A stretch of 64,000 nt of DNA, taken from NCBI GenBank assembly GCA_965248995.1, contig CBDFKY010000005.1:172719-236718 (forward strand), written 5' to 3'. This DNA comes from Rickettsiales bacterium (GTDB taxonomy: Bacteria; Pseudomonadota; Alphaproteobacteria; Rickettsiales; UBA998). This document shows positions 4,106-31,586 of this stretch, piece after piece. The position numbers and the translations under genes are program-made. The notes below the pieces were generated by a model that was not told the DNA's origin, did no database searches, and saw only the letters and a list, made by a program, of their open reading frames with translations. Every line of letters starts with the position of its first letter. Position 1 is the stretch's first letter.

Positions 4106-4182
4106 GGCGGGGTAGCTCAGTTGGTTAGAGCAGCGGAATCATAATCCGCGTGTCGGGGGTTCAAATCCCTCTCCCGCTACCA
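4106..4182 (+). tRNA. tRNA with CAT anticodon (elongator Met or lysidine-modified Ile2); CCA encoded
   Basis: Cloverleaf folded by hand. Acceptor GGCGGGG/TCCCGCT, D arm GCTC-AGTTGGTTA-GAGC, anticodon arm GCGGA-ATCATAA-TCCGC, T arm GGGGG-TTCAAAT-CCCTC, then discriminator A and CCA. Confidence 0.9.
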
Positions 4183-6309: not shown

Positions 6310-6310
6310 G

Positions 6311-8796: not shown

Positions 8797-8911
8797 AATG
8801 GGTGGCGCAAGTGGCACGAGTGGCGCGACACTGCATCGCAGTCACTTCTGGGATGAAATACATATATCATCCGCTAAATAATGCCACTGGAAACGGCATT
8901 TATGCTTATAT

Positions 8912-9755: not shown

Positions 9756-9757
9756 CC

Positions 9758-10492: not shown

Positions 10493-10573
10493 GGGAGATG
10501 ATAATAAACGCACTGCCCTCACAGGAATCTGGACGCGCTGCACAGCCTGCTTCTCAAACGATAGGATGACATC

Positions 10574-11341: not shown

Positions 11342-11477
11342 CGAACCCTACTTAAAATGATTTTATCGTGTAAATTATCTGCCCCGCACCAGCTTTGACC
11401 AATACGAAAGAATAGGCTATCAAGCTACTAATAGGAAAACGTAACATATGCTTTTCGCATAAAAATAAACGGACATC

Positions 11478-15061: not shown

Positions 15062-15064
15062 TAT

Positions 15065-16651
15065 ATGGTAGCTAGAAAACGACCGAAACCTATACAAAAT
15101 CCTATAATTCTTCGTGGTTTACTGGATAGGGCACTTGCGAATTTTACTTGCTTGCGTGGCTATGCCACCATGAAAGATTTGCACGGCATTTCTAAGGCAG
15201 ACGAAAGCTATCAACGCAGCTTGATTACTAAACACCATGAAAGGATGGTAAATTTTCTTAATGATGAAGAATACCTTTTTTTCCCTGAAGTCATTTTAGG
15301 CGCATCTCTTGTAAATGGTCTGCGAAATGAAATTTATATGGACGATGTAGATGATTTTTTGAAAAATCTGGATCAGGGTAAAGGGCAATCTCATCCGTTC
15401 GATGACTTTACACTGCGGTATAATACCACTGCCTACCAAAACCCAAATGATGCGCGGCAAAAAAACTATTTGAAACGCGCCAGATTGACGATCACTAATG
15501 ATGCGTTTCAAAAATTCCATCGTATTGACGGCAATCACCGCTTAAGCGTACTAGATGAGCCTGAAAAGCTAAAAGATGATGCGCAACGGCAGAAATTTGA
15601 AGCATTAAACGTACCCTTTTGCCTTGTCCTGTTTCCTACCAGTGCAGATTTAGAAAAACATAGTCGCGTTTTGTTTCATAATCTCAATTTCCACCAGATA
15701 CCCATCACCAAGGAAAAAAATTTAAGCCTGATTCTGGACCAAGGCAGCCCTTTTGATAATGAGAAATTACGAACCACATTTGGGGAATCATACCCGCTGG
15801 CGCGCCAGATATTAGACAGTTGGGACTTGGAAATGATCCCGCATATCATGGCAGTGATTGAACCAGCGGATGGTGTGGACAAAGAAAAAGAGTGCAAGCG
15901 CACATATCTTATCAATACATTGGAACTACTAAATAAAAAAGAAGTGGTGCATGACGCACAACGGGTAAAAGCCGTATTAGGAGTAATTAATCCGCTTTTT
16001 GAAAATCATATGATGCAGGCATCCCCAAATCATGGCTTGCTTACTGCCTACACCTACTATGCAATCAGCAAACCCCATGCACTAAGAATTTTCCATAATT
16101 GGGTTGTGCAAAACCACATCTACCATACTGAAAGCATTAAGGCAGAAGAATTAATTAAAGTGTTTGACTGTGTGCTGGAATCACGCCACCAAACGGTATT
16201 TGTATCCATGCAGTTTAGTCCTGAAACAGAAGGAAATTATGAGGCAATCCAAAAAGCTATTGATGAGGTGAATGCCGATAACCGACTTGATTTGAAAATT
16301 CAACCCATCCGTATTGACCAGTTTAAGAAAGGCTATTCTTATGAAATTACCGATGAAATTTTAGAACTGATTCAAGGATGTGGTTTGCTTATTGCAGATT
16401 TAACGTATGGTAACAAAAATGTATATCATGAAGTAGGTTTTCTTATGGGGCAAAATGCAGGAAAAGACAAACCGCAAGACAATTTTATTTTTGTTTGGAA
16501 TGATAGTGCATCTAAAGATAAATTTAATAAAGATGTAAGTTTTAATCTAAATCATAAACAAGTGCTTAAAGCTAAGGGTACGGGTGATATGACGGCACAA
16601 CTCAAAGAACAGATTGAGATTTTTTATCAGTTGAAAGTGCTTGAGATTTGA
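15065..16651 (+). CDS. fusion protein: DndB/DGQHR-family (ParB/Srx-like) N-terminal domain plus TIR / nucleoside 2-deoxyribosyltransferase-like C-terminal domain
   Basis: The start lies 3 nt after the S-subunit stop. The N-terminal part has YQRSL..MVNFL...FFPEVILGA and HRIDGNHRLSVL (DGNHR at 15527-15541). The C-terminal part has TVFVSMQF...GLLIADLTYGNKNVYHEVGFLMGQ. The domain calls are pattern recognition, not a search result. Confidence 0.55.
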   Translation: MVARKRPKPIQNPIILRGLLDRALANFTCLRGYATMKDLHGISKADESYQRSLITKHHERMVNFLNDEEYLFFPEVILGASLVNGLRNEIYMDDVDDFLKNLDQGKGQSHPFDDFTLRYNTTAYQNPNDARQKNYLKRARLTITNDAFQKFHRIDGNHRLSVLDEPEKLKDDAQRQKFEALNVPFCLVLFPTSADLEKHSRVLFHNLNFHQIPITKEKNLSLILDQGSPFDNEKLRTTFGESYPLARQILDSWDLEMIPHIMAVIEPADGVDKEKECKRTYLINTLELLNKKEVVHDAQRVKAVLGVINPLFENHMMQASPNHGLLTAYTYYAISKPHALRIFHNWVVQNHIYHTESIKAEELIKVFDCVLESRHQTVFVSMQFSPETEGNYEAIQKAIDEVNADNRLDLKIQPIRIDQFKKGYSYEITDEILELIQGCGLLIADLTYGNKNVYHEVGFLMGQNAGKDKPQDNFIFVWNDSASKDKFNKDVSFNLNHKQVLKAKGTGDMTAQLKEQIEIFYQLKVLEI

Positions 16652-16824
16652 CCGATATGTATAGAAATGGTCGTTTTCTATGTGTGTTCTTTTTATAAAA
16701 ATTGAGTAGCAAGTTTCCGTAATTACCGAAGTTCCCTATACGGTTCGTTTTAAGAGCGGTCTTTGCTTCCACAGAATTCCCCCTTGCAGGACTCTCAAAA
16801 CATCTATATACTTCTACCTAACAT

Positions 16825-16857
16825 GACCAGCCCCACCACAGGCTGGTCTTCTTGTTT
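16825..16857 (+). terminator. candidate rho-independent terminator after the three-gene operon
   Basis: Hairpin gaccagcc-ccaccaca-ggctggtc followed by ttcttgtttg. Confidence 0.5.
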
Positions 16858-16865
16858 GTAGTGAG

Positions 16866-17210
16866 ATGATGAACTATTCCAAGCCTTACCTTGCTATCCC
16901 TGACCAGCTATCCTTACTTCAACAGCGCGGATTGCATATCACGGATCACGACAAAGCCGCGCATTACCTTTCTAACCTTGGCTATTACCGCCTTAGTGGG
17001 TATTCTTACGCCTTTCGCCAGAGTACACACCGCCCCGATGGAACCGTGCAGGTGCATGATGATTTCAAGGAAGGTGTGCAGTTTGATGACATCCTTGCCC
17101 TGTATGTCTTTGATAAGCGTTTGCGCCTGTTATTGCTGGTTGCGATTGAACGCATAAGCACTGCGAAGAATTCCCGCTCGCTCACAAGACCCTTGGATTG
17201 CGCCTCATGA
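16866..17210 (+). pseudogene. Abi_2 (AbiD/AbiF-like) abortive-infection gene, N-terminal fragment only
   Basis: The family-typical N-terminus is present (LSLLQQRGLHI...HYLSNLGYYRLSGYSYAF...LYVFDKRLRLLLLVAIERI). The sequence then diverges and stops at about one third of normal length. Confidence 0.65.
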
Positions 17211-17394
17211 TGACATCCGCTTCAAGTCTGCTCTATTTTTAAGAGAAAAGAATATACAATAAAGATAAAGAACGGCTTCATAATTATTTAATAATTATTT
17301 AATAGACAATGTATATAAACATCTTTATATTAAATTAATGCATACTGATTCTTTGAGTATGAAAGAAGATAAATCCTTATTATAGAGGCACCAT

Positions 17395-18207
17395 ATGAGC
17401 GAAGTTGAAAATGATGTTATTTCACGTGAAACAGCCAACGGATTTGAGGTAACAGTATTTAAGGGCGGGCAGATCGATGTAACGAATACACATGCTAAGC
17501 CAGGCGAGCTACAATCGGTTAGTGCGTTTCCTGACGGTAACCGCGCGGGGTATATCGCCACCGCAAATAATGGGATTGATCTTGCTCCCGCTGGCACAGA
17601 CTTAAGCCAGATGACACATGGTCATACAGTAGTGGAAATTGATCCTAAATTGTTACACGTGGAAGTGAAACATGACGGTATCACTATTTATAAAGTCGAT
17701 GAAACCAGAACGGTTGAGACGCGGCAAACACAAAAAGCTGAAAGTCCTCCCATCTTCAGTGAAACGGCAAATGGATTTCAGGTGACAGCTTTGGAAGGTG
17801 GTCGTATCATGGTATCCAATACGCACGCTAATACACCAGGGGAACTGCAATCGGTTGATTTATTTCCTGACGGAACACGTACTGGTTATGTTCTGACGGA
17901 AAATGGCGGCGTTGCTTTGGCTCCTGCGGGGATGGATCTTACGAAGATGACGCATGGCCACACCGTGGTGAACATTGATCCTGAAAAGTTAAAAGTGCAG
18001 GTGCTGCATGACGGTAAGGAAATTCTTGGACTTGACAGAACCGTCAAAACCGAGACACAACGCAGCAATGACCCAGCACGTTTTGAGGAAATGCTTCAGG
18101 GCTTAGATAAATCGGTGCTTGATAAAATAGCCCTTAACCCTTCAGATAGGGAACATACAAATACAGCCGAAAAATCTAATGCTAAGAGTGGTGGAAGACC
18201 ACGTTAA
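17395..18207 (+). CDS. orphan protein with two tandem repeats of about 110 aa
   Basis: ETANGFEVTVFKGGQIDVTNTHAKPGELQSV..FPDG.R.GY....N.G..LAPAG.DL..MTHGHTVV.IDP..L.V.V.HDG occurs twice. The flanks are AT-rich. I do not recognise a family. Confidence 0.55.
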   Translation: MSEVENDVISRETANGFEVTVFKGGQIDVTNTHAKPGELQSVSAFPDGNRAGYIATANNGIDLAPAGTDLSQMTHGHTVVEIDPKLLHVEVKHDGITIYKVDETRTVETRQTQKAESPPIFSETANGFQVTALEGGRIMVSNTHANTPGELQSVDLFPDGTRTGYVLTENGGVALAPAGMDLTKMTHGHTVVNIDPEKLKVQVLHDGKEILGLDRTVKTETQRSNDPARFEEMLQGLDKSVLDKIALNPSDREHTNTAEKSNAKSGGRPR

Positions 18208-18308
18208 TGCCTATCTAAAAAGGGTGGTGCCTCAGTTTGCATATGTTGTCATTCTGAGCGCAGCGAAGAATCTCACTGATACATAAGAAATCCTTTGCGA
18301 CGCTCAGG

Positions 18309-18383
18309 GTATGTCTTTATAAACGGTTGCGCCTGTTATTGCTGGATGCGATTGAATGCATAGAAGTTGGAAGGAACGTGTGA
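18309..18383 (+). pseudogene. second, degenerate Abi_2 fragment duplicating the 17098-17155 segment
   Basis: gtatgtcttt..ttgcgcctgttattgctgg.tgcgattgaa.gcata is about 88 percent identical by eye to 17098-17155. It has a 1-nt indel. It reads on as ...IEVGRNV and then stops, resembling the usual IERIEV continuation. Confidence 0.45.
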
Positions 18384-18501
18384 TAAACCTCATAGATGCT
18401 TTTCCCGCATCACCGCATATCAATGTAGGGATGATGGGAGCGCAAGGGGAATGGAAGCAGTGGGATTTATGGCGGTAATCCTTGCGTTTGCGGTGAAAAA
18501 G

Positions 18502-18527
18502 TCTGTGTAATTCCTGTGTAATCGTGC
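18502..18527 (+). repeat. second copy of the 26-bp tandem CTGTGTAAT element; candidate arm-type site (distal arm)
   Basis: Identical to 4229-4254. It lies about 125 bp inside attR. Confidence 0.6.
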
Positions 18528-18651
18528 CAAGAAAACCATAGAATATGAGAGAATAAAACTGTTATCTGAATCCGTCATTAAAGACCCAATAAACTGATTT
18601 ATATAAATATATAGAACTTTATAGAATGATACAGAACATATCCCTTGAGGT

Positions 18652-18707
18652 ATCATAATCCGCGTGTCGGGGGTTCAAATCCCTCTCCCGCTACCATATT
18701 TTTCAAT
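18652..18707 (+). repeat. attR: 56-bp direct repeat (duplicated tRNA 3' part)
   Basis: Identical to 4138-4193. No tRNA 5' half lies upstream, so this is a tRNA fragment and not a gene. Confidence 0.9.
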
Positions 18708-18775
18708 TAGCTATGTAGAACCTGCATAAGAAATAAATATTTTATGAAGTTAATGATCAACTTTGGCAACACAGT

Positions 18776-19090
18776 ACGCTCTCCGGTTCCGGCGCGCTCG
18801 CCAAGTGGCAGCAGTACCTCCCCACCCTACTCGGACTCAAGGATTACGTCCTCCACACCATCCCCCAGACCGAGGATTTCTTCGGCAATGCCATCAGCAC
18901 CCCCATCAACATCGTCGGCATGTCCGATACCCAGCTTCTTACCAACATCGTCGAGGAAGCGTACGGGCGCACCCTCCCCCTGACCATGGCGCAACTCACC
19001 GGCGGCATCACCTCCGACGCGGATGCCAGTAAAACATTGCAACCTGTAAATGATAATACTTCCTGGTTTTTCTCTTTACGAGCAGCATAA
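18776..19090 (+). pseudogene. orphan 3' fragment of an RTX-head-array gene (shared module plus NDN tail), no start codon
   Basis: It translates as TLSGSGALAKWQQYLPTLLGLKDYVLHTIPQTEDFFGNAISTPINIVGMSDTQLLTNIVEEAYGRTLPLTMAQLTGGITSDADASKTLQPVNDNTSWFFSLRAA and then stops. It is about 90 percent or more identical in DNA to 25830-26075. Confidence 0.8.
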
Positions 19091-19112
19091 AAATCTGGTA
19101 AGGAAAATTGCT

Positions 19113-19555
19113 ATGAAAAAACGATATCTGCTTCTGCTGCCTGTTTTCGCCCTGATGCTACCTGCGGGACTAAACTACTCTGGTATGTGCCTAGCGGAAG
19201 GCGGATGGCTTAGTGATGAGGAGCGGATTGATATAGCAATTCAACGCATCATTTCTCAAAAAAAAGTATGGATTTCTGATGGTGCAGCAGGTTCGCAAGA
19301 ATATGATTTTGTGCCCTATGCTTCAGTAAAGGAGTTTAAGAAAAAAAATCCCAATTGTTGTACTGTTTATGGGGGGGCTATAAGGACTATTTTCCATCCG
19401 ACTCTTTTTTAAATAAAATCTTTGGTTATGGTTATCATAACATCGCTTTTGACTATGAAGCAAAATACCTTGATAATGGAAAAATAAAAATTTCATACCT
19501 TAAAGACACTATTTACACTTACGATAATTGCCAAAAACTTAGAAACCTAAATTGA
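19113..19555 (+). pseudogene. small secreted protein (candidate immunity 1), split by a frameshift in a G7 tract
   Basis: Signal peptide MKKRYLLLLPVFALMLPAG. The ORFs 19113-19412 and 19355-19555 overlap. Adding one G at 19371-19377 fuses them into a 147-aa ORF. Confidence 0.6.
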
Positions 19556-19565
19556 TGAGATTGTT

Positions 19566-21224
19566 ATGACATTACCAAGCGCTAAGACAATTTTGAATTG
19601 GTACCTTTATGGAAGCAGTAATGTTCCCGTTGAAAAGGCTACGGATACTTTAATCCGTCCAGACGATAGAACAAGTACAGTGTCTATCAACAAACAGGAG
19701 TTTATGGATACGGGTGGAGGTCGTTTCGCAGTTGCATCACAGTTTGAACTTGTTCAAAGATTTTTTGCTGCACCTGTTGATTTATTTGTTCGTGATAAGG
19801 TTTACACCAAGACAGAAGTTGCTTCATTGCTTGGATATACTAGCAATGATTTTTATGGATGGGATATGCAGCAATACAACTTTGTAGATGGCAAAGATGA
19901 TCTTGCTGAACGCACTTACATATATAACTCAATGCGATTTAAAATTGTAGACAATACCACGTTTGTTTTACCTAGTGGGTCACTAGATGATCGTAAAATT
20001 ACTAATTTTGCATCAGAGCCAATTTATAAAGACGGTGCAGGAAACGTAACGGAAAATTTTGATCTTAAAAGTAATGATCTCGCTACGTTAATTGCAAATG
20101 GGGTGTTTCTTAAGCCTTGGAATGATCCTTCAGGAATTGGAAGGACTGTATATTTGAACTTTACTGGCAATGTAACTCCACGCACTACAGATTATACTCG
20201 TACTACTTATACAAATGAAAAAGATACTGCTTTAGCGTGGAATTCTTCTTATTTAAACAATGGATTATACGATAAAGTCAAAGCGCTATCTGATAATTTA
20301 TTTTCTGAGCAAGTCGGAACAACACGCTTTCTCGATTCACAAAACCGCCCTATTTTTTACGGTACAGACAGTGATAATTCCCTCTCAACGCATGACTTGC
20401 AAAGGGCTCCTTACTTAAAGCCTTATATTCAAAACGGAGTTGTCCTCATTGGCGGAAAAGGGAATGATACGTTAACTGGTTATGGCAAGAATGACCTGCT
20501 TATTGGTGGGGCGGGGGCGGATAAGTTCCATGTTCAAGGTAAGGAAACGATTCAAGACGCCACGCCGGAAGACCGTGTTTATATTAATGGCGTGGAAGTT
20601 ACAGGAGGGCTTAAGCCGCTTGGTTTTGATGTGCCGATTGCGGTAAATGAAGCGCGGGGACATGTATTTGAAGTGTTAAGCGGCGACATCAACCAGCCCA
20701 CGGGTGCGACATTGGCGGTCAAATATCTGTGGGATAATGATGCGATTGCTATCATCAAGGATTACACCCGCCCTTATTTGGGCATTGGCGATGGTAACAT
20801 TGAAATTTACGAATATAAGCATGGCACGCCAACTTCACTTTCTGATTTAATCAAAGCATACAACACTGCTTACAATAATACGACCAACACGACCACAACC
20901 GCAGGTGGCAGTTCCGCAGCCGCACCCTCTGGGGCGGATACCAATTCTGCCAATGCCAGCGCAACGGTGTACAAACCCACCATCGGCACCACGGAACTGC
21001 ATGCGACGATAGACGCGGTGTTCGACGGCCTGTCAGGTTCGGGAGCACTCGCCAAATGGCAGCAGTTCCTGCCAACATTGGTGAAACTCAAAGATTATAC
21101 ACTACATTCCATTCCCCAAACCGAAGATTTCTTCGGTAACGCCACCACCACCCCGATCCCGCAAGTGGGGATGAGTGCTGCTAACGATAATTTTTCTTTA
21201 ATGGTTCTCTTGAAAGCTGCATAA
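19566..21224 (+). CDS. RTX-module protein with an unknown AT-rich N-terminal head (about 295 aa)
   Basis: The C-terminal half has GGKGNDTLTGYGKNDLLIGGAGADKF nonapeptide repeats and a diverged copy of the shared module (..GLKPLGFDVPIAVNE..ALAKWQQFLPTL..IPQTEDFFGNA..). It ends in NDNFSLMVLLKAA. Confidence 0.75.
   Translation: MTLPSAKTILNWYLYGSSNVPVEKATDTLIRPDDRTSTVSINKQEFMDTGGGRFAVASQFELVQRFFAAPVDLFVRDKVYTKTEVASLLGYTSNDFYGWDMQQYNFVDGKDDLAERTYIYNSMRFKIVDNTTFVLPSGSLDDRKITNFASEPIYKDGAGNVTENFDLKSNDLATLIANGVFLKPWNDPSGIGRTVYLNFTGNVTPRTTDYTRTTYTNEKDTALAWNSSYLNNGLYDKVKALSDNLFSEQVGTTRFLDSQNRPIFYGTDSDNSLSTHDLQRAPYLKPYIQNGVVLIGGKGNDTLTGYGKNDLLIGGAGADKFHVQGKETIQDATPEDRVYINGVEVTGGLKPLGFDVPIAVNEARGHVFEVLSGDINQPTGATLAVKYLWDNDAIAIIKDYTRPYLGIGDGNIEIYEYKHGTPTSLSDLIKAYNTAYNNTTNTTTTAGGSSAAAPSGADTNSANASATVYKPTIGTTELHATIDAVFDGLSGSGALAKWQQFLPTLVKLKDYTLHSIPQTEDFFGNATTTPIPQVGMSAANDNFSLMVLLKAA
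20452..21180 (+). repeat. shared module, copy A (most diverged)
   Basis: Aligned by eye with 23008-23815 and 25275-26075. Confidence 0.7.
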
Positions 21225-21245
21225 AAATCTGGTAAGGATTACGTC

Positions 21246-21932
21246 GTGAAAAAACAGATACATATAACTGCTCTGATATTTGCAACTTTGTTAAATCTTG
21301 CAAATGAAACAAGCGTTGCAAATGCGAGTGAAAAAAGGGAATGGACGCTTGACCCTATAGATAATCGTGCGAATATTCCTAATAAGTTTCCGCTTTGCCA
21401 TGAATTGCTTTCTTTGCTAAACGATTCAGCAAATAAAGATTATATTCTTCAATGGAAGAAGGGAGATGTGGCGTTAGTAATTCCGAAGTCCTTCAAAAAC
21501 TTCCGTCTTCCCATTTGGAAGGACGTGCCGAAAGATCAATGGGGAGAAATACTTTCTAAAAAGGACCAAAAGAGCATGACACCAGCAGGAGGTATTCAAA
21601 CCACGCAGATGGATGTAGATCATGACGGGAAAGCGGATAAAATCCTTAGGTTTTGGATTGGCGATCCACAATCAAGCTGGCGTACCCCTAGATGTCGCGT
21701 GGCGTTAGATTCACTAAAGTATCTTAAAGCATTTAACACAGAGGGAGGCAATAATACTGATGCCTGTTTCATGCTCTATTATAAGGGCAGAGCCTATCAA
21801 AAAGCAGGTACAGCATTCATAATTGTTTATGAAGGTTCGCAAACTCGTACAATAGACGGTCTGCATTTCTATGCGTCACCTGTTTGCAGCTTTACTCCAC
21901 CTAAAACCTATTTTCAGAAATCCACCAAATAA
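21246..21932 (+). CDS. small secreted protein (candidate immunity 2)
   Basis: GTG start. Signal peptide MKKQIHITALIFATLLNLANETSVANA. The gene is AT-rich and ends 16 nt before the GH24-head gene. Confidence 0.65.
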   Translation: MKKQIHITALIFATLLNLANETSVANASEKREWTLDPIDNRANIPNKFPLCHELLSLLNDSANKDYILQWKKGDVALVIPKSFKNFRLPIWKDVPKDQWGEILSKKDQKSMTPAGGIQTTQMDVDHDGKADKILRFWIGDPQSSWRTPRCRVALDSLKYLKAFNTEGGNNTDACFMLYYKGRAYQKAGTAFIIVYEGSQTRTIDGLHFYASPVCSFTPPKTYFQKSTK

Positions 21933-21948
21933 CTACGGAGATCTTATC

Positions 21949-23823
21949 ATGCCCATCACCTATAAACCACTGACACAATCCGCTTATGTTACCCAGCGCT
22001 ATGATTTGATTCGTTTGTTTGAAAACTACAAACCCTTTTTATACGACGATTCAAAAAACAAAGCCACTATTGGCACGGGATTTAACGTGGAAGATGATAG
22101 GGTACGCATAGAAGTGGTAAAAGTAATTACGGTGGCGGCTGGCACCAATGCTGATGGAGACATTCTTAGTGCAAGCCTTAATAACATCATCTCCACCCAC
22201 GCATCCTCCAGCGCAAACACATTGGCTGGCTTGCTAAACCCAGAAATGAAAAACTATTCCGATGCGCACCCTACTCTAAATATGCGTACCACCTTCACCT
22301 TTACCAGTGAAGCGGAAGCCAAGCAGGTATTCAACACTCTTGCGCCAACTTATGAAAATGTGGTGAGTGCGAAACTGCCTTCCGTACCTCAATATGCAGA
22401 AGAACGGCTTGCGCTGTTTTCGCTTGCCTATAATAGCCCTACCCTGATCGGACCAAAATTAACCGCTGCAATTAGTGATGGCAATCGTGCCGAGGCTTGG
22501 TATGAAATCCGTTATGATTCAAACGGTGATGATCTGCCAGGCATTGCCAAGGGGCGATATTACGAGTCTGAAGTGTTCAAGCCGTACAAAGACCATGTCA
22601 ATCCAACACTGGATGAGGCAAAAGAAATGGGCACCATGTTTGCCCATCATAAAACAGATATTCTTGCCTATGACAAGCTGTACGGGGCACAATTAACGCT
22701 GGAGTATAATGCGCTATTTTCAAATGATTTAAAATACCATATAGAGCCTGCCATCACGTTACTAAAAACAACGTACAACATTCCTGTAAGCATTGCGTTA
22801 GATGAACTTCAAGTAGCGGACACTGAAAATCTCCACTTAAAAGGGGATGGCACGCCGAATGACGTTAACAAAAACGACTTTTTGATTGGCGATGACAGTG
22901 CCAACCTGTTAAACGGTGGGGGAGGCAGAAACGTGCTTGTTGGTGGTGCGGGCAACGATGCGTTGGGTGATTATAATGCAGCGACCACGATGGCAACCGC
23001 ATCACAACTTTACGGAGGCGCTGGTGACGACCACTTCGGCGTGTTTGGAAAAGCCGTCATCAAGGACATCGAACGTAACGACAAAGTGTATGTTGATAAC
23101 ATCCAGGTGACGGGCGGGATCAAGCCGCTTGGCTTTGATGTTCCCATTGCCACCAACTTCCAGACGGGCCATGTGTTTCAGGTAGCGGGTGGAGACATCC
23201 TACAAGAAAACGGCGCGACACTTAACGTCAAATTCCTGTGGGATAACGACGCGATCGCCACCATAGAGAATTACACGCGCCCTTACCTGCAGCAGGGTGA
23301 CGGGCATATCGAAATCTACCAGGTCGGGCATGGCTCCTCCACGCCGCTCGCCACGTGGATCAAAGCCTATAACGACGCCTATAACAACACCACGAACAGT
23401 ACCAACACCACTACAACAGCGGGTGGCGGTTCAGCTGCCGCGCCATCCGGTGCAAGCAACTCCGCTAATAGCAGCGCCAACGTATACAAACCCACCATCG
23501 GCACGACGGAACTGCATGCGACGATAGACGCGGTGTTCGACGGGTTCTCCGGCTCTTCCGCTTCCGCCGCACTTGCCAAATGGCAGCAGCACCTCCCCAC
23601 CCTGCTCGGACTCAAGGATTACGTCCTCCACACCATCCCCCAGACCGAGGATTTCTTCGGGAATGCCATCAGCACCCCCATCAACATCGTCGGCATGTCC
23701 GATACCCAGCTGCTCACCGATATCGTCGAGGAAGCTTACGGGCGCACCCTCCCCCTGACATGGCGCAGCTCACCGCAGGCATCACCTCCGACGCCGATGC
23801 GAGTAAAACATTGCAGCCCGTAA
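21949..23823 (+). CDS. RTX-module protein with a GH24 (T4-lysozyme-like) N-terminal head; the C-terminal tail is frameshifted
   Basis: RLFENYKPFLYDDSKNKATIGTGFN has E25/D34/T40 at the T4-lysozyme E11/D20/T26 spacing, and LALFSLAYN follows. A GGAG RBS lies at 21937-21940. A 1-nt deletion at 23759/23760 diverts the frame. The ancestral frame would end at 23864 (..KTLQPVNDNCIFNFILKAV). Confidence 0.8.
   Translation: MPITYKPLTQSAYVTQRYDLIRLFENYKPFLYDDSKNKATIGTGFNVEDDRVRIEVVKVITVAAGTNADGDILSASLNNIISTHASSSANTLAGLLNPEMKNYSDAHPTLNMRTTFTFTSEAEAKQVFNTLAPTYENVVSAKLPSVPQYAEERLALFSLAYNSPTLIGPKLTAAISDGNRAEAWYEIRYDSNGDDLPGIAKGRYYESEVFKPYKDHVNPTLDEAKEMGTMFAHHKTDILAYDKLYGAQLTLEYNALFSNDLKYHIEPAITLLKTTYNIPVSIALDELQVADTENLHLKGDGTPNDVNKNDFLIGDDSANLLNGGGGRNVLVGGAGNDALGDYNAATTMATASQLYGGAGDDHFGVFGKAVIKDIERNDKVYVDNIQVTGGIKPLGFDVPIATNFQTGHVFQVAGGDILQENGATLNVKFLWDNDAIATIENYTRPYLQQGDGHIEIYQVGHGSSTPLATWIKAYNDAYNNTTNSTNTTTTAGGGSAAAPSGASNSANSSANVYKPTIGTTELHATIDAVFDGFSGSSASAALAKWQQHLPTLLGLKDYVLHTIPQTEDFFGNAISTPINIVGMSDTQLLTDIVEEAYGRTLPLTWRSSPQASPPTPMRVKHCSP
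23008..23815 (+). repeat. shared module, copy B
   Basis: About 80 percent DNA identity to copy C at its 5' end by eye. Identity rises to 100 percent over 23591-23806, apart from one missing C. Confidence 0.8.
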
Positions 23824-23886
23824 ATGATAATTGCATTTTTAATTTTATCTTGAAAGCTGTTTAAGCTTTCTGATATTCATATTAGC

Positions 23887-24432
23887 ATGAAGAAGATAAT
23901 CAGACTCTGCCTTGCCTTATTTCTTGCGTTGCTGTGTGGAGCGGAGACGCATGCTGAAACCGTGACTAAAAAATATGAAGGAGATAGTTCCTTTACCTGT
24001 GGTGGAAAAACCTATTCGATACCCACGTATTTTCCTTATCAAAAATCTTATTCTTCTGGTACTCGCTATTTAAAAGCAAGTTGTTCAAAAACTGGCTTTG
24101 AAGTCAGCATTAATTTAGATAAAGACTGTCAAGGTCAACATGATTGCGAGGTAGCAAAATTTACTTTCGGCATTATCGACCAAGGAGTTATGGGTGTAAT
24201 TTCAGCAGGATATTTCAATACCACTAAAAGTTTTTCCTTGAAAGATGAGCCATTAAACGGTTTCTATCTGCCTTCCAAGTGTTATGCCTACTGTAATAAA
24301 ATGTTTTTTTTATGGTTTGATAATAATAAAGCGTACGCTATAGGTTCTGAGTTTTCTCATGGCTTCGAAAAAGATACAAGAGAGCTTGAACAGTCTGTTA
24401 AATCATATCTTCATAGCGCAAAAGGAAATTAA
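23887..24432 (+). CDS. small secreted Cys-rich protein (candidate immunity 3)
   Basis: Signal peptide MKKIIRLCLALFLALLCGAETHA. The stop lies 2 nt before the start of the giant gene. Confidence 0.65.
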   Translation: MKKIIRLCLALFLALLCGAETHAETVTKKYEGDSSFTCGGKTYSIPTYFPYQKSYSSGTRYLKASCSKTGFEVSINLDKDCQGQHDCEVAKFTFGIIDQGVMGVISAGYFNTTKSFSLKDEPLNGFYLPSKCYAYCNKMFFLWFDNNKAYAIGSEFSHGFEKDTRELEQSVKSYLHSAKGN

Positions 24433-24434
24433 CA

Positions 24435-27400
24435 ATGAAAGAGAAGCAAGTTACTATTTTCGAAACCCCTTTTATCGCAGATATTGGTGCAATTTACAAC
24501 AGTGGGCATAATGATTATATCAAATATCTTTTTGATGAAATGATTTTTCAGGGTGTTACTGAAACGAATCAGATTTCCTATGTCTTAGCAACTGCAAAAC
24601 ACGAAACTCAAGGATTTACTAGCTTACACGAAAAATATAATGGCAATTCTGCTTACGACTATTTCATGGCTAAATACAGTGATAGAACAGATTTAGGAAA
24701 TCGTCCTGGAACTGACGATGGATATACTTATTATGGTCGAGGATTTGTTCATCTGACCGGACGTGCCAATTACGAAAAGATGGGTAATCAGTTTGGAGTA
24801 GATTTATTAAATCATCCTGAAAAAGCAGAGGAACCTCTCCTTGCAGCAAAAATCGCCGTTTACGGTATGTTGCATGGTTCTTTTACGGGAGCCACACTTT
24901 CGCAATATATTAATTCAGATAAGGCAGATTATTTAGGGGCGAGAGCCATAATAAATGGTATTGATCAAAATTCTTTAATCGCTGGTTACGCTAAAGATTA
25001 CGACGCATTACTGGAATCAAAATTACCCACCAGAACGATTCCATATACATGGGACATGCGTACGGATAACGCCACCAACGATCTTATCAAAGGAGGCAAT
25101 GCTAACGATACGCTTTACGGTGGAAAAGGCGATGATAAACTCTATGGCGGGAAAGGTGACGACTACCTAGATGGAGGTGACGGCATTGATTACCTCTATG
25201 GTGGGCCTGGAAAAAACACATTAGTCGGTGGTGAAAAGGGTGATGTGATTGCTAACTTTGGTGGTCAGGATTCCATTTACGGAGGCGCTGGCGACGACCA
25301 TTTCGGTGTTTACGGCAAAGGCACGATCAAGGACATCGAACGCGACGACCACGTCTATGTCGACAACATCCAGGTTACCGGCGGCATCAAACCTCTCGGC
25401 TTCGACGTGCCCATCGCCCTGAACACCAAAACGGGGCATGTGTTCCAGGTCACCGGCGGCGATATCCTGCAGGAGAACGGAGCTACGCTGAATATCAAGT
25501 TTCTCTGGGACAATGACGCCGTCGCCACCATCGAAAATTATACCCGTCCCTACCTTCAGCAGGGTGACGGACATATCGAGATCTACCAGATGGGGCACGG
25601 TTCCTCCACCCCGCTCGCCAGTCTCCTCAAAGCCTATAACGACGCCTACAACAATACCACCAACAGCAGCAACGGCAGCAGCAGCGCAGGCGGCGCTTCC
25701 GCCGCCGCGCCCTCCGGTGCTTCCAATTCCGCCAACAGCAGCGCGGAGGTCTACAAGCCCACCGTCGGTACCGTCCAGCTGCGTGCCTCCGTCGACGGCG
25801 CGTTCGATACCTTGTCGGGTTCCGGTGCGCTCGCCAAATGGCAGCAGTACCTCCCCACCCTGCTCGGACTCAAGGATTACGTCCTCCACACCATCCCCCA
25901 GACCGAGGATTTCTTCGGGAATGCCATCAGCACCCCCATCAACATCGTCGGCATGTCCGATACCCAGCTGCTCACCGATATCGTCGAGGAAGCTTACGGG
26001 CGCACCCTCCCCCTGACCATGGCGCAGCTCACCGCAGGCATCACCTCCGACGCCGATGCGAGTAAGACCCTCCAGCCCATCATCATCGCTGCCGGCAATC
26101 AGTCCGTCACCGGTAACACGCTGGATACGCCCTACATCATCACCGGCAGCAACGCCACCGTCACCGATGCCAAAGGCTCCGACACCTACATCGTCGATCC
26201 CGGTTTCGGGTCGCTTACCATCAAAGATTCCAGCGGCGGCACTTATACCAACATCATTGCGGCCGCCTATAACCAGACCAACGTTCAGACCGATACCATC
26301 CGCTTTACCCACCTTACCGCCGATCATGCCTCCATCACCCGTGACGGCAACGACCTGCTCATCAGGGAAGTCGGTACCAGCAACCTGGTGCGCGTCAAGG
26401 ACGATTTCGCCCATGAAGCGGGCAGCTCGCTCCTGTTCAGCAGCAGCGCCGATCATGCCGTCGAGCAGATCGTGTTCGCGGACGGAGCGACCAAAACCAC
26501 CATCGACATCCGCCGTGCGGTCACGGAAGCGCAGGCAACGGACGGGAACGACCATATCATTGGCACCGTCGACCCGGATATCCTGCAGGGGAAGAAAGGC
26601 GCGGATACACTGGAAGGTGGCGATGGCGGAGATATGTATAAATTCAACGCGGGCGACGGAGCCGACCTGATCCGCGATCATCAGCAGGACGTGTTCCTGG
26701 ACAGTAACGACAGCGTCAAGTTCGGTGCGGGCCTCAGTCTGGACAACGCCGTCTTCACCCGCGTCGATGTCTCGGCCAGTGGACAGGCGACCGCGAACCT
26801 GGAAGGTAAGGGGCTGCTGATCGATTTCGGCGGCGGGGACAAGATGGTGATCGACAGCCAGTTCGATGTCTCAACGCTCGGTTACGGCACGTTCGACGCG
26901 TACAGCTTCGTGCCACAGGCCATTTTGAATAATCCGCTGAGCCAACTGGCTTCGGTGACGCAAATCCCGCCCGGTTTCGATTCCACCGGGTATACCAACC
27001 AGTCCGGCATCCATATCGTGACCAATACGGTCACGGGCGGATATGATGTGACCGTGGACGATATCAATTATCATTACACCACGCCCGCCAATCCGCAGGC
27101 GGGGGGGCTGGTAATTCCCGCCCCCGATGACCGTATCGAGACGTTCATCTTTTTCGGCGACGGCACTGCACTTTCCGCGGAAGAAGTACAGCAATTGATG
27201 GTGGACCGCGCGAAGACCGACGGTAATGACCATATCGCAGGGTTTGCAGAGAGCGAGACGCTCGACGGCGGTGCGGGGAACGATACGCTGGAAGGTGGAG
27301 ACGACGGCGATACCTACCTGTTCGGTCTCGGTTACGGCCAGGACACCGTTCATGACTCTATGACCAACGTGTTGATGAAAGCACCGGATACCGTAGAATT

Positions 27401-30400
27401 CGGTGACGGCATCACTACCGCTAATATTCACGCGACGCGGGCGGCAGGATCAGACGATCTGGTATTCAGGATTGACGGGGTGAGTGATACGTTGACCATT
27501 AAGAACCAGTTCGCCTCCAGCACGCTGGGACTGGACAGTTTTTATTCACTGAACGAACGCATCGAGTCGTTCCAGTTCGCGGGCGGCACCAGCTGGAACG
27601 CGTCGGATATTCAAACCAGACTGTTGCAGAAAACAGCGGGCAATGACCTGCTGCAGGGCTTTTTCTCGAAAGACGTGCTCGACGGCGGTGCGGGCAACGA
27701 CACGCTGATGGGCGGCGATATGGGCGATACTTATATCTTTGCCAAAGGGTATGGCAACGACGTCATCGACGACCGCATGACCAGTATCCTGTTCAAGGAT
27801 AACGACCGCCTCGCTTTCGGGCCCGGCATCACGAAAACCAATGTGAGCTTTGCGCGGGGAACGGATCAGGATGATCTGGTGGTGACCCTGAACGATACCG
27901 GTGAGGCGGTGACGATTAAAAACCAGTTCGACTACGAACCGTTCGAACCGGAAAGCATTTTCTCCATCAACAACGCTATCGAGGAATTTTATTTTTCGGA
28001 CGGCAGCGCCTATACCTATCAGGATATCTGGAACCTCCTGCTCAAAAGCACACCGGGTGACGATCACCTGATCGGCTTCTTCCGCAACGATACGCTGGAC
28101 GGCGGGGCCGGGAACGATCTGCTCGAAGGTGGTACTATGAGCGATACCTACATTTACGCTACGGGATACGGCAACGACACCATCCGTGATCTCGATTCGG
28201 GTATTACCAGTGACGATAACGACAAGGTGCAGTTCACCAACCTGACGCGTGCGCAAGTCACGTTCGCGGAAGGCGCCGACCGCAACGACCTCGTGGTTAA
28301 AATTATCGCGACGGGTGAAACTTTGACCATTATCGATCAAAACCTGACCTTTAACGTAGGCGGCCCACCTTATCAGATCGAACAGTTCATGTTCAGCGAC
28401 CAGACACTTTCCGCGGCAGAGGTGCGTACCGCCATTACCGCCAGCCAAGGCACGACGGGAAATGACACGATTCACGGCTCTTTCGGCAATGACACGCTGG
28501 ACGGCGGTGCAGGTAACGACCGTCTGGAAGGCGGCGACGGCGCGGATACGTACGTCTTCGGCAAAGGATATGGGCAGGACACGATCTACGATGTCGAGAA
28601 CGAAGTCTTCCTTGCGGGAAATGATCGCATCCTGTTCAACAGTTCGGTCACGCCCGCTGATGTGACGCTGGCACGCAACGCCAATCCGTTCGATCTCGTG
28701 GTAAAGCTCAGTTCCGGCGACAGCATCACCGTGCAGGACCATCATAAGATTTTCAATATTGGTGCGCCTCCTTTTGAAATGGCGACCATCGAGTTTTCCG
28801 ACGGCACGGTATGGAACACCGACATGATCCGCTCCAAGCTTTTGCAAGCCACGGCTGGCAATGACACCATCACGGGGTTTTTCACCAATGATACGCTGAT
28901 CGGCGGCAAGGGGAACGACCTGCTCGACGGTGGCGACGGCAGCGACACCTATATCTACAATACGGGCGACGGTGTGGATACGATCGCGGAACATCTGGCC
29001 AATGTGTTTTATGATACGCCGGATACGCTGCAGTTCGGCGCGGGCATCACGGAGGCAAGCATCAGTCTTTCCAAATCCAGCCTTTCCAGCACCGATCTGA
29101 CGGTAAAGATAAACAATGTCGCTGCAGTGGTGATCAAAGACCAGTTCAGTGATTATAACCATGTGGAACAGATAAAATTCGCCAGCGGCGTGGTGTGGGA
29201 CGATGAGGCGGTTCTTGCCAGACTGACCGGCGGCACGGCAGGGAACGATACGATTTCGGGCAGCACGGTCGTCAACACCATCGCGGGCGGAGCGGGCAAC
29301 GACGTGCTGGAATTCGCCGACACCGCCAACCAGCATTATACGCAGCATCTCCTGGGCGGTACGGGTAATGACACGTATTTTTACGGCAGCGGTTACGGCC
29401 CGACGTTCATCTCCGACAGCGCCGGGTCGGATACGCTGAAATTCAACTCCGGCATCACGCTTTCCAGCCTGACTTACGAACAGAGCCGAAACGACCTGGT
29501 CATCCATGTGGGCACCAGCGCGAATGACAGCATCCGTATCGAAGGGTATTTCGATGCGGGCAACGGCCACAGGGTAGAATCGCTCAACGTCGCGGGTACG
29601 ACGACTTCGCTTAATGCATTGCTCAGCACCAGTACGAACGGGAATGACAATCTGCTTGGCACCGCGGGCGCCGACGTAATGACGGGCGGCCTCGGCAATG
29701 ATACGCTGGACGGCGCCGGGGGACGCGATACGCTGGACGGCGGGCCCGGCAACGACCGCCTGATCGGCGGTGCGCCTTCACTGTACGAAACGGTGAACGA
29801 TGTTTATATCTTCAACATCGGCTACGGCAACGACACCATCTACGACGTGCAGCAGCATCTTTATTATTCGACGATGGATACGATTCAATTGGGTGCAGGC
29901 ATTACGCCGAACGCCGTGACGGTGATGCGTGATGGCGACGACATGGTGCTGCGCATCAGTGCCACGGACACACTTCGGGTGGAAAGCCAATTTGATGTCC
30001 TGGGCTACAACGCCGTGGAAGTGGTGCAATTCGCCGACGGTACCGTCTGGGGGATGCAGGAACTGCGCCAGCACGCGCAGACCGTAACCGACGGCAATGA
30101 TCTGATCGGCACCTATCATAACATCAATGACAGCGTCCATGCCGGTGCGGGTAACGATACGGTGCTCGGCTCCAGCGGTGACGACGCCATTTTCGGAGAT
30201 GCGGGGGATGATTTCATCAATTACCGCTCGGGCCTTTATACGGGATACTGCACGCTGGATGGCGGAGACGGTAACGATACGATCACCGGCTCAGGGAGTA
30301 GCGTCCTGATCTACGGGGGTAACGGCAATGATTCCATCACCGGCGGCATCGGCGACTACGATACGCTGCAAGGCGGCAACGGGAACGATACGCTGGACAA

Positions 30401-31475
30401 TGACAGCGGCTTTTTCGACAAGCTGTACGGCGGCGACGGCAACGACCTGATCCGGGCCGAAATCGGCGCCAGTCTGCGGGCAGGCACCACTGCCTATGCG
30501 AATACGGTCGATGGCGGCCTCGGCAACGATACCGTCAGCTTCCACAACAGCGGAGCGACGTCCCTCGTGGTGAACCTCGCAGCGGGTACGCTTACCGTGA
30601 ACTATGACTATAATACCGAGCATTACACCGTCACCGCCCCGTTTCTCAACGTGGAAAACGTCAGCATCAGTTCCGGCACCGTCACCATGATCGGCTCAGC
30701 TGCCAATAATCAGCTCATCGGCGCATCCGGAAACGATTCCCTGTCTGGCGGCGACGGGAACGACACGCTGCAGGGCGGCATTGGCGTCGACACGATGGAC
30801 GGCGGCAACGGCATCGACCTGGTCGATTACCGTGACCAGAGCGGCAACTGGAACATCAACCTGCTGACCGACAAGGCCGTTTATTCCAGTATCACGGAAA
30901 ATATCACCAACATCGAATCGGCTTTCGGCAGCAAAGGTAATGACACCCTCACCGGAGATGCCGGCGGCAATTTCCTCGGCGGCGCGGACGGCAATGATTT
31001 CTTGGCTGGCGGCGATGGGAACGACACATTGATGGGCGGTGCGGGTCGCGACACTCTAAATGGTGGCAACGGTACCGACATGGCAGATTACGGCGACGCG
31101 ACGGTCGGCTGGAACATCTCGCTCAGCGCCGGCACCGCCGTCTCTGCCGGTGTGACGGAAACACTGACGCTTATCGAATCGGTCAATGGTTCCGTGGGCA
31201 ACGATACCATTACCGGGGATGCGGGGGCGAACCTCTTGCTCGGCAATACGGGCGACGATCTGCTAACCGGCGGCATCGGCCGGGACACGATGACCGGCGG
31301 CGATGGGGCAGACATCTTCATTTTCTCCGCCCTCACCCACAGCCCGGATGCCACACCCGACATCATCACCGACTTCCAGCCGGGCATCGACAAAATCGAT
31401 TTGCGCGGCCTCGGCCTTACCGGGTTCGATACGGACGGCGGACTCACCGAAGCGGGAGAACTGCGCCTCGCTTAA
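24435..31475 (+). CDS. giant RTX protein (2346 aa) with a GH19 chitinase/muramidase-like N-terminal head
   Basis: The head has AKHETQGF...YSDRTDLGNRPGTDDGYTYYGRGFVHLTGRANYEKMG. GGxGxD nonapeptides follow, then the shared module, 8 RTX plus HCBP-related modules and a long nonapeptide block. It ends at an in-frame TAA inside the conserved C-terminus. Confidence 0.85.
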   Translation: MKEKQVTIFETPFIADIGAIYNSGHNDYIKYLFDEMIFQGVTETNQISYVLATAKHETQGFTSLHEKYNGNSAYDYFMAKYSDRTDLGNRPGTDDGYTYYGRGFVHLTGRANYEKMGNQFGVDLLNHPEKAEEPLLAAKIAVYGMLHGSFTGATLSQYINSDKADYLGARAIINGIDQNSLIAGYAKDYDALLESKLPTRTIPYTWDMRTDNATNDLIKGGNANDTLYGGKGDDKLYGGKGDDYLDGGDGIDYLYGGPGKNTLVGGEKGDVIANFGGQDSIYGGAGDDHFGVYGKGTIKDIERDDHVYVDNIQVTGGIKPLGFDVPIALNTKTGHVFQVTGGDILQENGATLNIKFLWDNDAVATIENYTRPYLQQGDGHIEIYQMGHGSSTPLASLLKAYNDAYNNTTNSSNGSSSAGGASAAAPSGASNSANSSAEVYKPTVGTVQLRASVDGAFDTLSGSGALAKWQQYLPTLLGLKDYVLHTIPQTEDFFGNAISTPINIVGMSDTQLLTDIVEEAYGRTLPLTMAQLTAGITSDADASKTLQPIIIAAGNQSVTGNTLDTPYIITGSNATVTDAKGSDTYIVDPGFGSLTIKDSSGGTYTNIIAAAYNQTNVQTDTIRFTHLTADHASITRDGNDLLIREVGTSNLVRVKDDFAHEAGSSLLFSSSADHAVEQIVFADGATKTTIDIRRAVTEAQATDGNDHIIGTVDPDILQGKKGADTLEGGDGGDMYKFNAGDGADLIRDHQQDVFLDSNDSVKFGAGLSLDNAVFTRVDVSASGQATANLEGKGLLIDFGGGDKMVIDSQFDVSTLGYGTFDAYSFVPQAILNNPLSQLASVTQIPPGFDSTGYTNQSGIHIVTNTVTGGYDVTVDDINYHYTTPANPQAGGLVIPAPDDRIETFIFFGDGTALSAEEVQQLMVDRAKTDGNDHIAGFAESETLDGGAGNDTLEGGDDGDTYLFGLGYGQDTVHDSMTNVLMKAPDTVEFGDGITTANIHATRAAGSDDLVFRIDGVSDTLTIKNQFASSTLGLDSFYSLNERIESFQFAGGTSWNASDIQTRLLQKTAGNDLLQGFFSKDVLDGGAGNDTLMGGDMGDTYIFAKGYGNDVIDDRMTSILFKDNDRLAFGPGITKTNVSFARGTDQDDLVVTLNDTGEAVTIKNQFDYEPFEPESIFSINNAIEEFYFSDGSAYTYQDIWNLLLKSTPGDDHLIGFFRNDTLDGGAGNDLLEGGTMSDTYIYATGYGNDTIRDLDSGITSDDNDKVQFTNLTRAQVTFAEGADRNDLVVKIIATGETLTIIDQNLTFNVGGPPYQIEQFMFSDQTLSAAEVRTAITASQGTTGNDTIHGSFGNDTLDGGAGNDRLEGGDGADTYVFGKGYGQDTIYDVENEVFLAGNDRILFNSSVTPADVTLARNANPFDLVVKLSSGDSITVQDHHKIFNIGAPPFEMATIEFSDGTVWNTDMIRSKLLQATAGNDTITGFFTNDTLIGGKGNDLLDGGDGSDTYIYNTGDGVDTIAEHLANVFYDTPDTLQFGAGITEASISLSKSSLSSTDLTVKINNVAAVVIKDQFSDYNHVEQIKFASGVVWDDEAVLARLTGGTAGNDTISGSTVVNTIAGGAGNDVLEFADTANQHYTQHLLGGTGNDTYFYGSGYGPTFISDSAGSDTLKFNSGITLSSLTYEQSRNDLVIHVGTSANDSIRIEGYFDAGNGHRVESLNVAGTTTSLNALLSTSTNGNDNLLGTAGADVMTGGLGNDTLDGAGGRDTLDGGPGNDRLIGGAPSLYETVNDVYIFNIGYGNDTIYDVQQHLYYSTMDTIQLGAGITPNAVTVMRDGDDMVLRISATDTLRVESQFDVLGYNAVEVVQFADGTVWGMQELRQHAQTVTDGNDLIGTYHNINDSVHAGAGNDTVLGSSGDDAIFGDAGDDFINYRSGLYTGYCTLDGGDGNDTITGSGSSVLIYGGNGNDSITGGIGDYDTLQGGNGNDTLDNDSGFFDKLYGGDGNDLIRAEIGASLRAGTTAYANTVDGGLGNDTVSFHNSGATSLVVNLAAGTLTVNYDYNTEHYTVTAPFLNVENVSISSGTVTMIGSAANNQLIGASGNDSLSGGDGNDTLQGGIGVDTMDGGNGIDLVDYRDQSGNWNINLLTDKAVYSSITENITNIESAFGSKGNDTLTGDAGGNFLGGADGNDFLAGGDGNDTLMGGAGRDTLNGGNGTDMADYGDATVGWNISLSAGTAVSAGVTETLTLIESVNGSVGNDTITGDAGANLLLGNTGDDLLTGGIGRDTMTGGDGADIFIFSALTHSPDATPDIITDFQPGIDKIDLRGLGLTGFDTDGGLTEAGELRLA
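25275..26075 (+). repeat. shared module, copy C (inside the giant gene)
   Basis: See copies A and B and the fragment at 18776-19045. Confidence 0.8.
26539..30080 (+). repeat. eight tandem modules of about 130-150 aa (GND..L.G....LDGGAGND.LEGG.G.DTY.F..GYG.D.I.D ... D.L.FG.GI....V...R...DLV......D..TI..QF......IE...FADGT.W)
   Basis: The repeat starts are visible in the translation (TDGNDHIIG, TDGNDHIAG, TAGNDLLQG, TPGDDHLIG, TTGNDTIHG, TAGNDTITG, TAGNDTISG, TNGNDNLLG). This is the RTX plus haemolysin-type calcium-binding-protein-related pattern. Confidence 0.65.
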
Positions 31476-31586
31476 AGCGATGCCACCGACCGTACCTACA
31501 TCCGCACCGACCAGCTCGATTTCGATATCGGTCTGCAGGGAGATTATCGCACTACCCTCACTGCAAGCGATATTCTATGGAGCTAA
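31476..31586 (+). other. in-frame remnant of the RTX C-terminus downstream of the TAA at 31473-31475
   Basis: It continues in the same frame as SDATDRTYIRTDQLDFDIGLQGDYRTTLTASDILWS and then stops. This looks like the usual end of this class of RTX proteins. Confidence 0.6.

Follow-up and report, generated by a model that had tools for sequence, protein, structure and literature searches.

Why do displaced genes of a toxin array end in one and the same short peptide, which the full-length gene downstream does not carry? The question is raised by 64,000 nucleotides (nt) of a Rickettsiales bacterium (assembly GCA_965248995.1, contig CBDFKY010000005.1, positions 172,719 to 236,718), the whole of which is called the window here. 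Three short genes or gene remnants in it, all related to a giant RTX gene that follows them, close with (V/A)NDN and ten further residues, referred to below as the tail. Judging from sequence comparison, we think it somewhat more probable than otherwise that the tail is a hard-coded mimic of the cell's own transfer-messenger RNA (tmRNA, ssrA) tag, and that it would serve as an SspB/ClpXP degron for the displaced fragment.

Three tails at the ends of displaced genes

All three tails lie on the plus strand. Tail 1 (19046..19090; V-NDN-TSWFFSLRAA-stop, KTLQPVNDNTSWFFSLRAA) closes a fragment that has no start codon, and tail 2 (21180..21224; A-NDN-FSLMVLLKAA-stop, GMSAANDNFSLMVLLKAA) is the only one in the window that stands on an intact gene. 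Tail 3 (23820..23864; V-NDN-CIFNFILKAV-stop, KTLQPVNDNCIFNFILKAV) belongs to the frame preceding a 1-base gap at 23759/23760 and is now out of frame. The common ending of the three short members and the reading of tail 3 in its pre-frameshift frame had been described in an initial annotation of the sequence, and both were found as described, as was the giant gene's KTLQP (26064-26078), which is followed there by IIIAAGNQ. The same annotation placed a switch from GC-rich to AT-rich DNA exactly at NDN. A switch is present at the junction, but for tails 1 and 3 it does not fall exactly there: where the giant gene writes KTLQP as aag acc ctc cag ccc, these two already have the AT-rich aaa aca ttg car ccy, which places the DNA breakpoint ~15 nt upstream of NDN. 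The broader idea, that the tail marks the breakpoint and is part of the incoming AT-rich DNA, agrees with the base composition both in the window and in G014, a genome of another genus of the same family.

The pattern is far beyond chance. When the whole genome (2.43 Mb) was scanned in six frames for ND[NT]x6-11A[AV] before a stop, 6 matches were obtained among 145,016 stops: besides the three tails and the tmRNA tag, there were two in tiny frames, of 17 and 3 amino acids (aa). NDN at 5-16 residues before the stop occurs in 7 of 18,754 frames of at least 60 aa, among them four cassette tails and one cassette remnant on contig C6.

Likeness to the tmRNA tag

The genome codes for a two-piece tmRNA of the alphaproteobacterial kind with the tag ANDNHALVAANDNTVVAVRAAA. 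The plan of this tag, ANDNxA[LF]VAANDNxVVxxxxAA, is common to nine relatives in the order (tmRNA loci L020-L023 and L084-L088); with 22 residues and a duplicated ANDN, it is an unusual tag, common to the order as a whole. The tails VNDNTSWFFSLRAA, AANDNFSLMVLLKAA and VNDNCIFNFILKAV echo its second half; in each, 9-10 residues separate NDN from a basic residue and the Ala-rich end. A BLOSUM local score was computed between the last 20 residues of each of the 18,754 frames and the last 14 of the tag; tail 2 came first, the tail of an array on contig C22 fourth and tail 1 eighth. Moreover, AANDNF in tail 2 equals the opening six residues of the Caulobacter ssrA tag, AANDNFAEEFAVAA, as given in PMC9393093, and one tail of another genome of the order (G166), VNDNVATPTATNDNHLDLSINTAIAS, mirrors the entire double-NDN tag ANDNVALVAANDNAVVEVAVAA.

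The proteins that would act on such a tag are coded in the same genome, which has SspB, ClpX (in two copies) and ClpP. SspB was also found in all five further array-bearing genomes (6/6 with our own), and it adjoins the tmRNA gene in three, sspB lying within ~250 nt of it in G166, G141 and G036.

Recurrence at other loci and in other genomes

The fourth-ranked match of the tag-likeness scoring led to a second array in the same genome (G000). On contig C22 (283000-299000, L044), two displaced copies, each followed by a small membrane open reading frame (ORF), lie ahead of an RTX protein of 999 aa that belongs to a different family. One copy ends in LAGHNVA joined to VNDNEKILLAAVA and a stop, and the other in the same tail disrupted by a 1-base loss. 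Genes resembling those of insertion sequences (IS) interrupt this array (L044 10848-12395). On contig C6 (249063-252174), a remnant ends in ANDNLIYFNKIT and a stop, directly ahead of an exported ORF and an RTX protein of 801 aa. G014 carries an array of the window's own module family, with the ends HGVLGS joined to NDNYMTECLAA and HGVLAS joined to NDTSMTKYLAA, each before a stop; an IS3-type transposase pair (L018 9899-11133) lies directly upstream of the oldest displaced fragment of that array.

The module family of the window is rare (11 matches in 1.84 billion representative proteins, 3 in 90% clusters; 2 loci in species genomes and 1 in metagenomes), and the survey was therefore moved to the commoner family of C22. 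A query of that family matched in 45 of 201 genomes sampled from the order, and seven regions from six of these genomes were examined (two in G166; one each in G141, G185, G036, G012 and G004). G166 has a five-member array and a second locus, with NDN in all six displaced ends, for example ANDNYVDISVNTAIAS before a stop; the single displaced end of G141 also has NDN. G004 shows two NDN ends, ANDNQKLRNAA and VNDNNSRLKNVA, both before a stop, together with a decayed fragment whose motif is out of frame. No NDN was found at the displaced ends of G185 (one) or G036 (two, ending in CTVA). In the latter genome (L081, contig C27), a tail without NDN, ACKP[YC]FATCTVA before a stop, occurs twice and ends in small residues.

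At the level of the class, 401 genomes were sampled and five regions from four genomes examined. G355, a member of another order with the tag ANDNVEHEVRMAA, has four displaced ends, which finish in RLAA, HHAA and, twice, ALAA, and NDN is present in two of the four; a tail ending in RNIFATALAA and a stop, without NDN, is found there twice (L091). Six metagenome pieces of the window's module family (L040, P0004, P0005, P0006, P0008 and P0010) have other tails: P0006 ends in AAANTNSQLSHTPPTFQYAAA and a stop, and P0008 has NDN 15 residues from an end in IVC. P0004 and P0010 share a different tail after KDYVL[HR], FLTMQKRHNSHVLMKSLCVLT before a stop in one and LLAVHKTHISYVLIESLSVLT, running on, in the other. 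This tail may represent another type of cassette edge, or the frames may read on into an insertion element.

Overall, an in-frame ND(N/T) stands at 19 of 31 displaced ends, 17 of 21 in the order of the window's genome. In the 19 tails the motif follows A, V or S and is identical to that of the genome's own tag. The last two residues are AA in 10 of the 31 and AA, AV or VA in 16, compared with 3.6% and 5.4% of frames of at least 150 aa in this genome, although binomial figures from these counts are overstated since they include non-independent paralogues. Two tandem short genes in G292, which have neither NDN nor AA ends and no full-length gene after them, were kept outside the 31, as were the split frames in G012 (L082) and on contig C6 of G000 (~57-58 kb), apparently broken single genes.

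The expectation of the initial annotation that NDN-tail junctions would recur at homologous loci is thus borne out at two further loci of the same genome, in four other genomes of the order and in G355. It had also taken scattered breakpoints as an argument to the contrary. Breakpoints do scatter along the module, the junctions including KTLQP, VGMSA, HGVLGS, GHNVA and about ten more; the tail is nevertheless conserved, and the same type of tail is found after unrelated upstream proteins.

Selection on the peptide and alternative explanations

The codons of the motif show at which level it is maintained. In 17 NDN motifs, codon positions 1, 2, 4, 5 and 7 are invariant and position 8 differs once, in a decayed fragment, while the third positions are T or C in ratios of 11/6, 11/6 and 15/2, all of them synonymous. 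Measured against the commonest codons, there are 15 differences, of which 14 are synonymous third-position T/C changes, and variation that is almost wholly synonymous argues for selection on the peptide. In addition, the motif is in frame in ~15 different junction contexts from several protein families, the sole out-of-frame case being the decayed G004 fragment; apart from this fragment, no hidden out-of-frame motif was found in the readable DNA of the ends that have no NDN. These data bear directly on an alternative that we consider unlikely, according to which the conserved stretch is a DNA element, a cassette promoter with its -35 in the tail and its -10 past the stop, perhaps with a Fur-type box at AATGATAAT, and the peptide is accidental. 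Promoter-like sites do overlap the ends of tail 3 (TTGAAA-16-GATATT, 23850..23877, plus strand, the first hexamer within the last codons), of the G014 tail (the homologous TTGACA-17-TACACT) and of C22 (TTGGCT or TTGACT-16-TATAGT). In G166 and G141, TTGAC directly follows NDN-x. Around the -35, where the DNA is homologous across genera, tail 3 and G014 agree at 19 of 22 bases, and the genome has two Fur-family genes. A binding site, however, would not track the reading frame as NDN does. The distance from NDN to the hexamer is unstable (7-23 nt), tails 1 and 2 have no -10, their stop being followed by a ribosome-binding site (AAATCTGGTAAGGA), and a promoter scan of the region gave 9 sites against 13 +/- 4 in shuffles. 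The tails match the E. coli Fur consensus at only 11-13 of 19 positions, and 599 sites in the genome score at least 13. A promoter may, besides, coexist with a functional peptide. The position of the Ala codons points the same way: in G014 two of them precede the shared TTGACA, whose TGA is the stop, and in the window they follow TTGAAA, so that an Ala-rich end kept in two registers of the shared -35-like DNA is not a by-product of that DNA. On this comparison the tail appears to be a translated, selected peptide that also overlaps a cassette promoter.

That the tail might be a functionless inherited scar, derived from a single ancestral junction (perhaps a tmRNA gene fragment that had been captured) and copied between cassettes by recombination, seems to us quite improbable. 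The proposal would explain why tails 1 and 2 share 17 identical bases past the stop, why tails of different genera have DNA in common around the -35-like site, why tail 2 and tmRNA genes share GCTGCTAACGAYAA, why the double-NDN tail of G166 resembles the tag in DNA too, and why several tailed genes are already broken. Against this, the differing upstream junctions mean that new joining events took place again and again, each of them in frame. Its interior has diverged freely whereas NDN and the small C-terminal residues have been kept, NDN varies at synonymous sites only, and the window tails have no DNA likeness to the tmRNA gene past the first 14 bases. The initial annotation had compared the tail to VENN of CdiA, a demarcation or recombination motif marking the point of exchange, and such a role is very improbable here. 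A tail does stand at every cassette boundary in the window, and the 97-100% identical stretch that recombines ends at the junction; but VENN occupies a single, fixed position within the full-length toxin, whereas here full-length and giant genes have no NDN at the junction and the position within the module is not fixed. The homology that recombines is, moreover, that of the module and not of the tail, and the tail follows unrelated proteins. Least probable of all is a C-terminal export or sorting signal that would let the short proteins leave the cell alone, as had also been suggested. The tail is indeed a short, hydrophobic and conserved C-terminus on proteins that retain RTX repeats, yet nothing pointing to such a function was found: full-length relatives have type I signal-like ends of a different, D-x-I-[FYW] kind (NADFIY, SDMIF, NADFLF and SDILWS), the tail is only 13-16 residues long and ends in RAA, KAA or LAA, and its conserved parts are those that match the degradation tag.

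Two other candidates were considered. An Rfam scan of 18500-24600 revealed no tmRNA-like or other RNA family, the only hit being a chance microRNA match (E 0.065). A shared alternative start was rejected, given that the ATG in AATGATAAT is in frame with the downstream ORF at tail 1 only and not at tails 2 and 3.

A proposed degron on displaced toxins

We come back to the tail as a mimic of the tmRNA tag, and to how it could work. The incoming cassette would be ordered as tail, -35-/promoter-like site, small immunity-like gene and new N-terminal toxin domain, and would join the resident gene of a type I-secreted RTX protein inside the conserved module. Crossing over within the module could be single, with a circular intermediate, or double, with a donor array. 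What had been the N-terminal part would remain upstream with its own start codon, having lost the C-terminal secretion signal, and its product would stay in the cytoplasm. The old frame would end in the tail, where ~8-12 spacer residues separate (A/V)NDN from a small Ala-rich end. In the tag ANDNxALVAANDNxVVAxRAAA, each of the two halves opens with the NDN motif, which alphaproteobacterial SspB reportedly reads (work of Lessner and of Chien, 2007). SspB would then bind the NDN part and ClpXP take the C-terminus, and the stranded, secretion-incompetent fragment would be degraded, while the downstream immunity-like gene and the new toxin could still be expressed from the operon. Genetic fusion of the Caulobacter tag to a protein is described as causing fast, SspB-accelerated proteolysis (PMC9393093). 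According to PMC3064785, SspB reads the N-terminal part of the tag and ClpX its three final residues, and tags with a weakened end (DAS) are degraded only with SspB; the G166 tails that end in AIAS would resemble such adaptor-dependent tags.

Observed directly were the anatomy of the junctions, their recurrence and the in-frame rule; the tail peptide is under selection and resembles the tag, and the genome encodes SspB, ClpX and ClpP. The proposal builds on these observations. Several points weigh against it. SspB binding, degradation and the insertion route of the cassette are steps that we infer. There is no NDN at 12 of the 31 displaced ends (two in G036, one in G185, those of L040, P0004, P0005, P0006, P0008 and P0010, two in G355 and the decayed G004 fragment), and in G355 its distance from the end is 21 residues. 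Many tails do not finish in AA (IAS, KVG, KVA and IVG in G166 and G141, KAV in tail 3), a third have no Ala-rich end, and the spacers are more hydrophobic than in real tags. A -35-like hexamer (TTGACA/TTGAAA) lies in or at the end of most tails of which the DNA was read, and with this overlap part of the conservation is at the DNA level. Furthermore, two of the three tails in the window are on dead genes, fragment 1 being start-less and short gene 3 frameshifted, and the giant gene has an in-frame stop, so that either decay or errors of assembly may have affected this copy of the locus.

Organisation of the locus

The array is made up of members that share a module of ~270 residues and differ in what precedes it; all features given here are on the plus strand unless stated. 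Fragment 1 (18770..19045) consists of the last ~90 codons of the module, and its protein is 97% identical to the copy in the giant gene. It is followed by small ORF 1 (19113..19412), which has a signal-peptide-like start, MKKRYLLLLPVFALM; a second ORF (19355-19555) overlaps small ORF 1 and reaches short gene 2, and the two are maybe one broken immunity-like gene. Short gene 2 (19566..21179) combines RTX repeats and a diverged module, 67% identical to that of the giant gene, with an N-terminal domain that belongs to no known family, and forms with tail 2 an intact gene of 552 aa (19566-21224). Small ORF 2 (21246..21932, 228 aa) also begins with a signal-peptide-like sequence. Short gene 3 (21949..23823; 624/650 aa) has a phage-lysozyme-like N-terminal domain (PF00959), RTX repeats and the module; the 1-base gap was recognised against the two other module copies, and owing to this frameshift the current frame stops at 23823. 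Small ORF 3 (23887..24432, 181 aa), again with a signal-peptide-like start, stops 2 nt ahead of the giant RTX gene (24435..31586), which consists of a Glyco_hydro_19 (GH19, chitinase-like) N-terminal domain, the module (25278-26078) and the RTX body, with PF00353 in 17 stretches. An in-frame TAA (31473-31475) cuts off its last 36 codons; the frame beyond ends in the type I signal-like SDILWS (stop 31584-31586), and the protein as assembled would thus be without export signal.

The module comes after a few RTX repeats in the three long genes, only the giant gene has the RTX body, and one module thus carries three different N-terminal domains (no known family, Phage_lysozyme and Glyco_hydro_19); its relatives elsewhere bear metalloprotease and membrane-type N-terminal domains. 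Each small exported or membrane ORF precedes the next N-terminal domain with a gap of 2-16 nt. None of these ORFs matched a family in Pfam or NCBIfam, and their immunity role is putative. The 3' part of the module is homogenised: 25830..26055 is 97-100% identical in DNA to 23590-23805 and 18790-19035, a stretch of ~200 nt that stops at the tail junction, and the remainder of the short gene 3 module is 63-88% identical to that of the giant gene. The confinement of the high identity to the last ~200 nt indicates that the copies recombine within that stretch. For the module itself, a profile search of PDB returned low-complexity matches only, and NCBIfam and Pfam show RTX repeats and no named relative; the predicted fold of its core (pLDDT 68) weakly resembles RTX beta-rolls. 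A PrtD-type ABC transporter (type I, 647 bits) is coded on contig C2, and no transporter gene was found among the scanned ORFs of the window.

The array begins ~70 nt beyond the end of an island. A methionine transfer RNA gene (tRNA-Met, 4106..4182, found by ARAGORN) has its last 44 nt repeated at 18655..18697, and this direct repeat bounds a 14.5-kb island (window 4183-18697). The island codes for a tyrosine integrase (4266-5399, minus strand), a primase-polymerase, a D5-like helicase and a type I restriction-modification methylase with its specificity subunit. It also contains an Abi-like fragment (16866-17210) and a protein of 270 aa (17395-18207) that is made of two internal repeats and has no family.

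Relation to known systems

From its layout, the locus resembles a polymorphic toxin array turned round, with variable N-termini and with the displaced copies on the upstream side. In CdiA-CT/CdiI, Rhs-CT, MafB-CT and the Neisseria tpsC cassettes, as summarised in PMC3150448 and PMC5472700, variable toxin domains are likewise carried on a conserved delivery protein; displaced or spare copies each come with a small immunity-like gene, and homology that permits exchange lies beside the variable part (PMC5472700). Unlike in those arrays, the variable domain is here at the N-terminus, the spare copies are upstream, the immunity-like gene is ahead of the toxin and no fixed VENN-type motif is present. 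The displaced copies, moreover, keep a start codon and are translatable, which may be why a degron is needed. Among type I systems, FrpC/FrpD comes nearest in pairing a variable N-terminal domain with a small exported protein. FrpC-like RTX proteins of Neisseria meningitidis are, according to PMC5472700, secreted by type I and have a variable N-terminal domain of ~350 residues, with the small exported lipoprotein FrpD in the operon; no displaced N-terminal arrays with tag-like tails are described for them, and FrpD is an anchor of FrpC and not a known immunity protein.

As regards the degron, the tail is like the Caulobacter tmRNA/SspB/ClpXP system in its (A)ANDN start, short spacer and Ala-rich C-terminus, its length being that of the second half of the genome's own tag. 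Unlike the tag, it is encoded in the gene and not added by trans-translation; it differs as well in the hydrophobic character of its spacer, in the many ends in AV, VA, AS or VG and in the overlap with the -35-like hexamer. Encoded Ala-Ala ends are reported for natural ClpX degrons of C-motif 1 (LAA) and for anti-sigma factors of M. tuberculosis (bioRxiv 10.1101/491043, PMC10862746). Those degrons involve the last few residues only, whereas the tails described here also copy the adaptor-binding part. The engineered DAS+4 tag (AANDENYSENYADAS) combines an N-terminal SspB site with a weakened end (PMC3064785), the same layout as in the G166 tails ending in AIAS; it is man-made from the E. coli tag, unlike the natural tails. 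Our literature search found no degron on displaced or orphan toxin cassettes, no type I polymorphic toxins with N-terminal domains, and no copy of a whole tag with its adaptor site at toxin cassette boundaries.

Implications

Taken more widely, these results suggest that small-genome alphaproteobacteria may swap N-terminal RTX warheads by means of cassettes led by a 'stop-and-destroy' mimic of the full tag that overlaps the cassette promoter, a generalisation to which we would give a little less than even chances. If true, this would be the first natural mobile element to write a complete ssrA tag onto the gene that it displaces, and a translated toxin remnant would be silenced post-translationally with its immunity gene retained. 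For C-terminal polymorphic toxins, the lack of a start codon keeps spare cassettes silent, whereas displaced N-terminal pieces keep both promoter and start; a built-in degradation tag would solve the problem of such a piece without export signal. It would also mean that selection can put a complete mimic of the tmRNA tag, adaptor site included, on ordinary genes. The tails would provide natural tag variants for studies of SspB and ClpX specificity and a simple sequence marker for locating cassette boundaries in genomes. Finally, the locus sets apart, as a class, polymorphic toxins that are type I-secreted and have their arrays upstream. They come from a poorly known order of alphaproteobacteria with small genomes, in which relatives carry the label Rickettsiales or uncultured Alphaproteobacteria.

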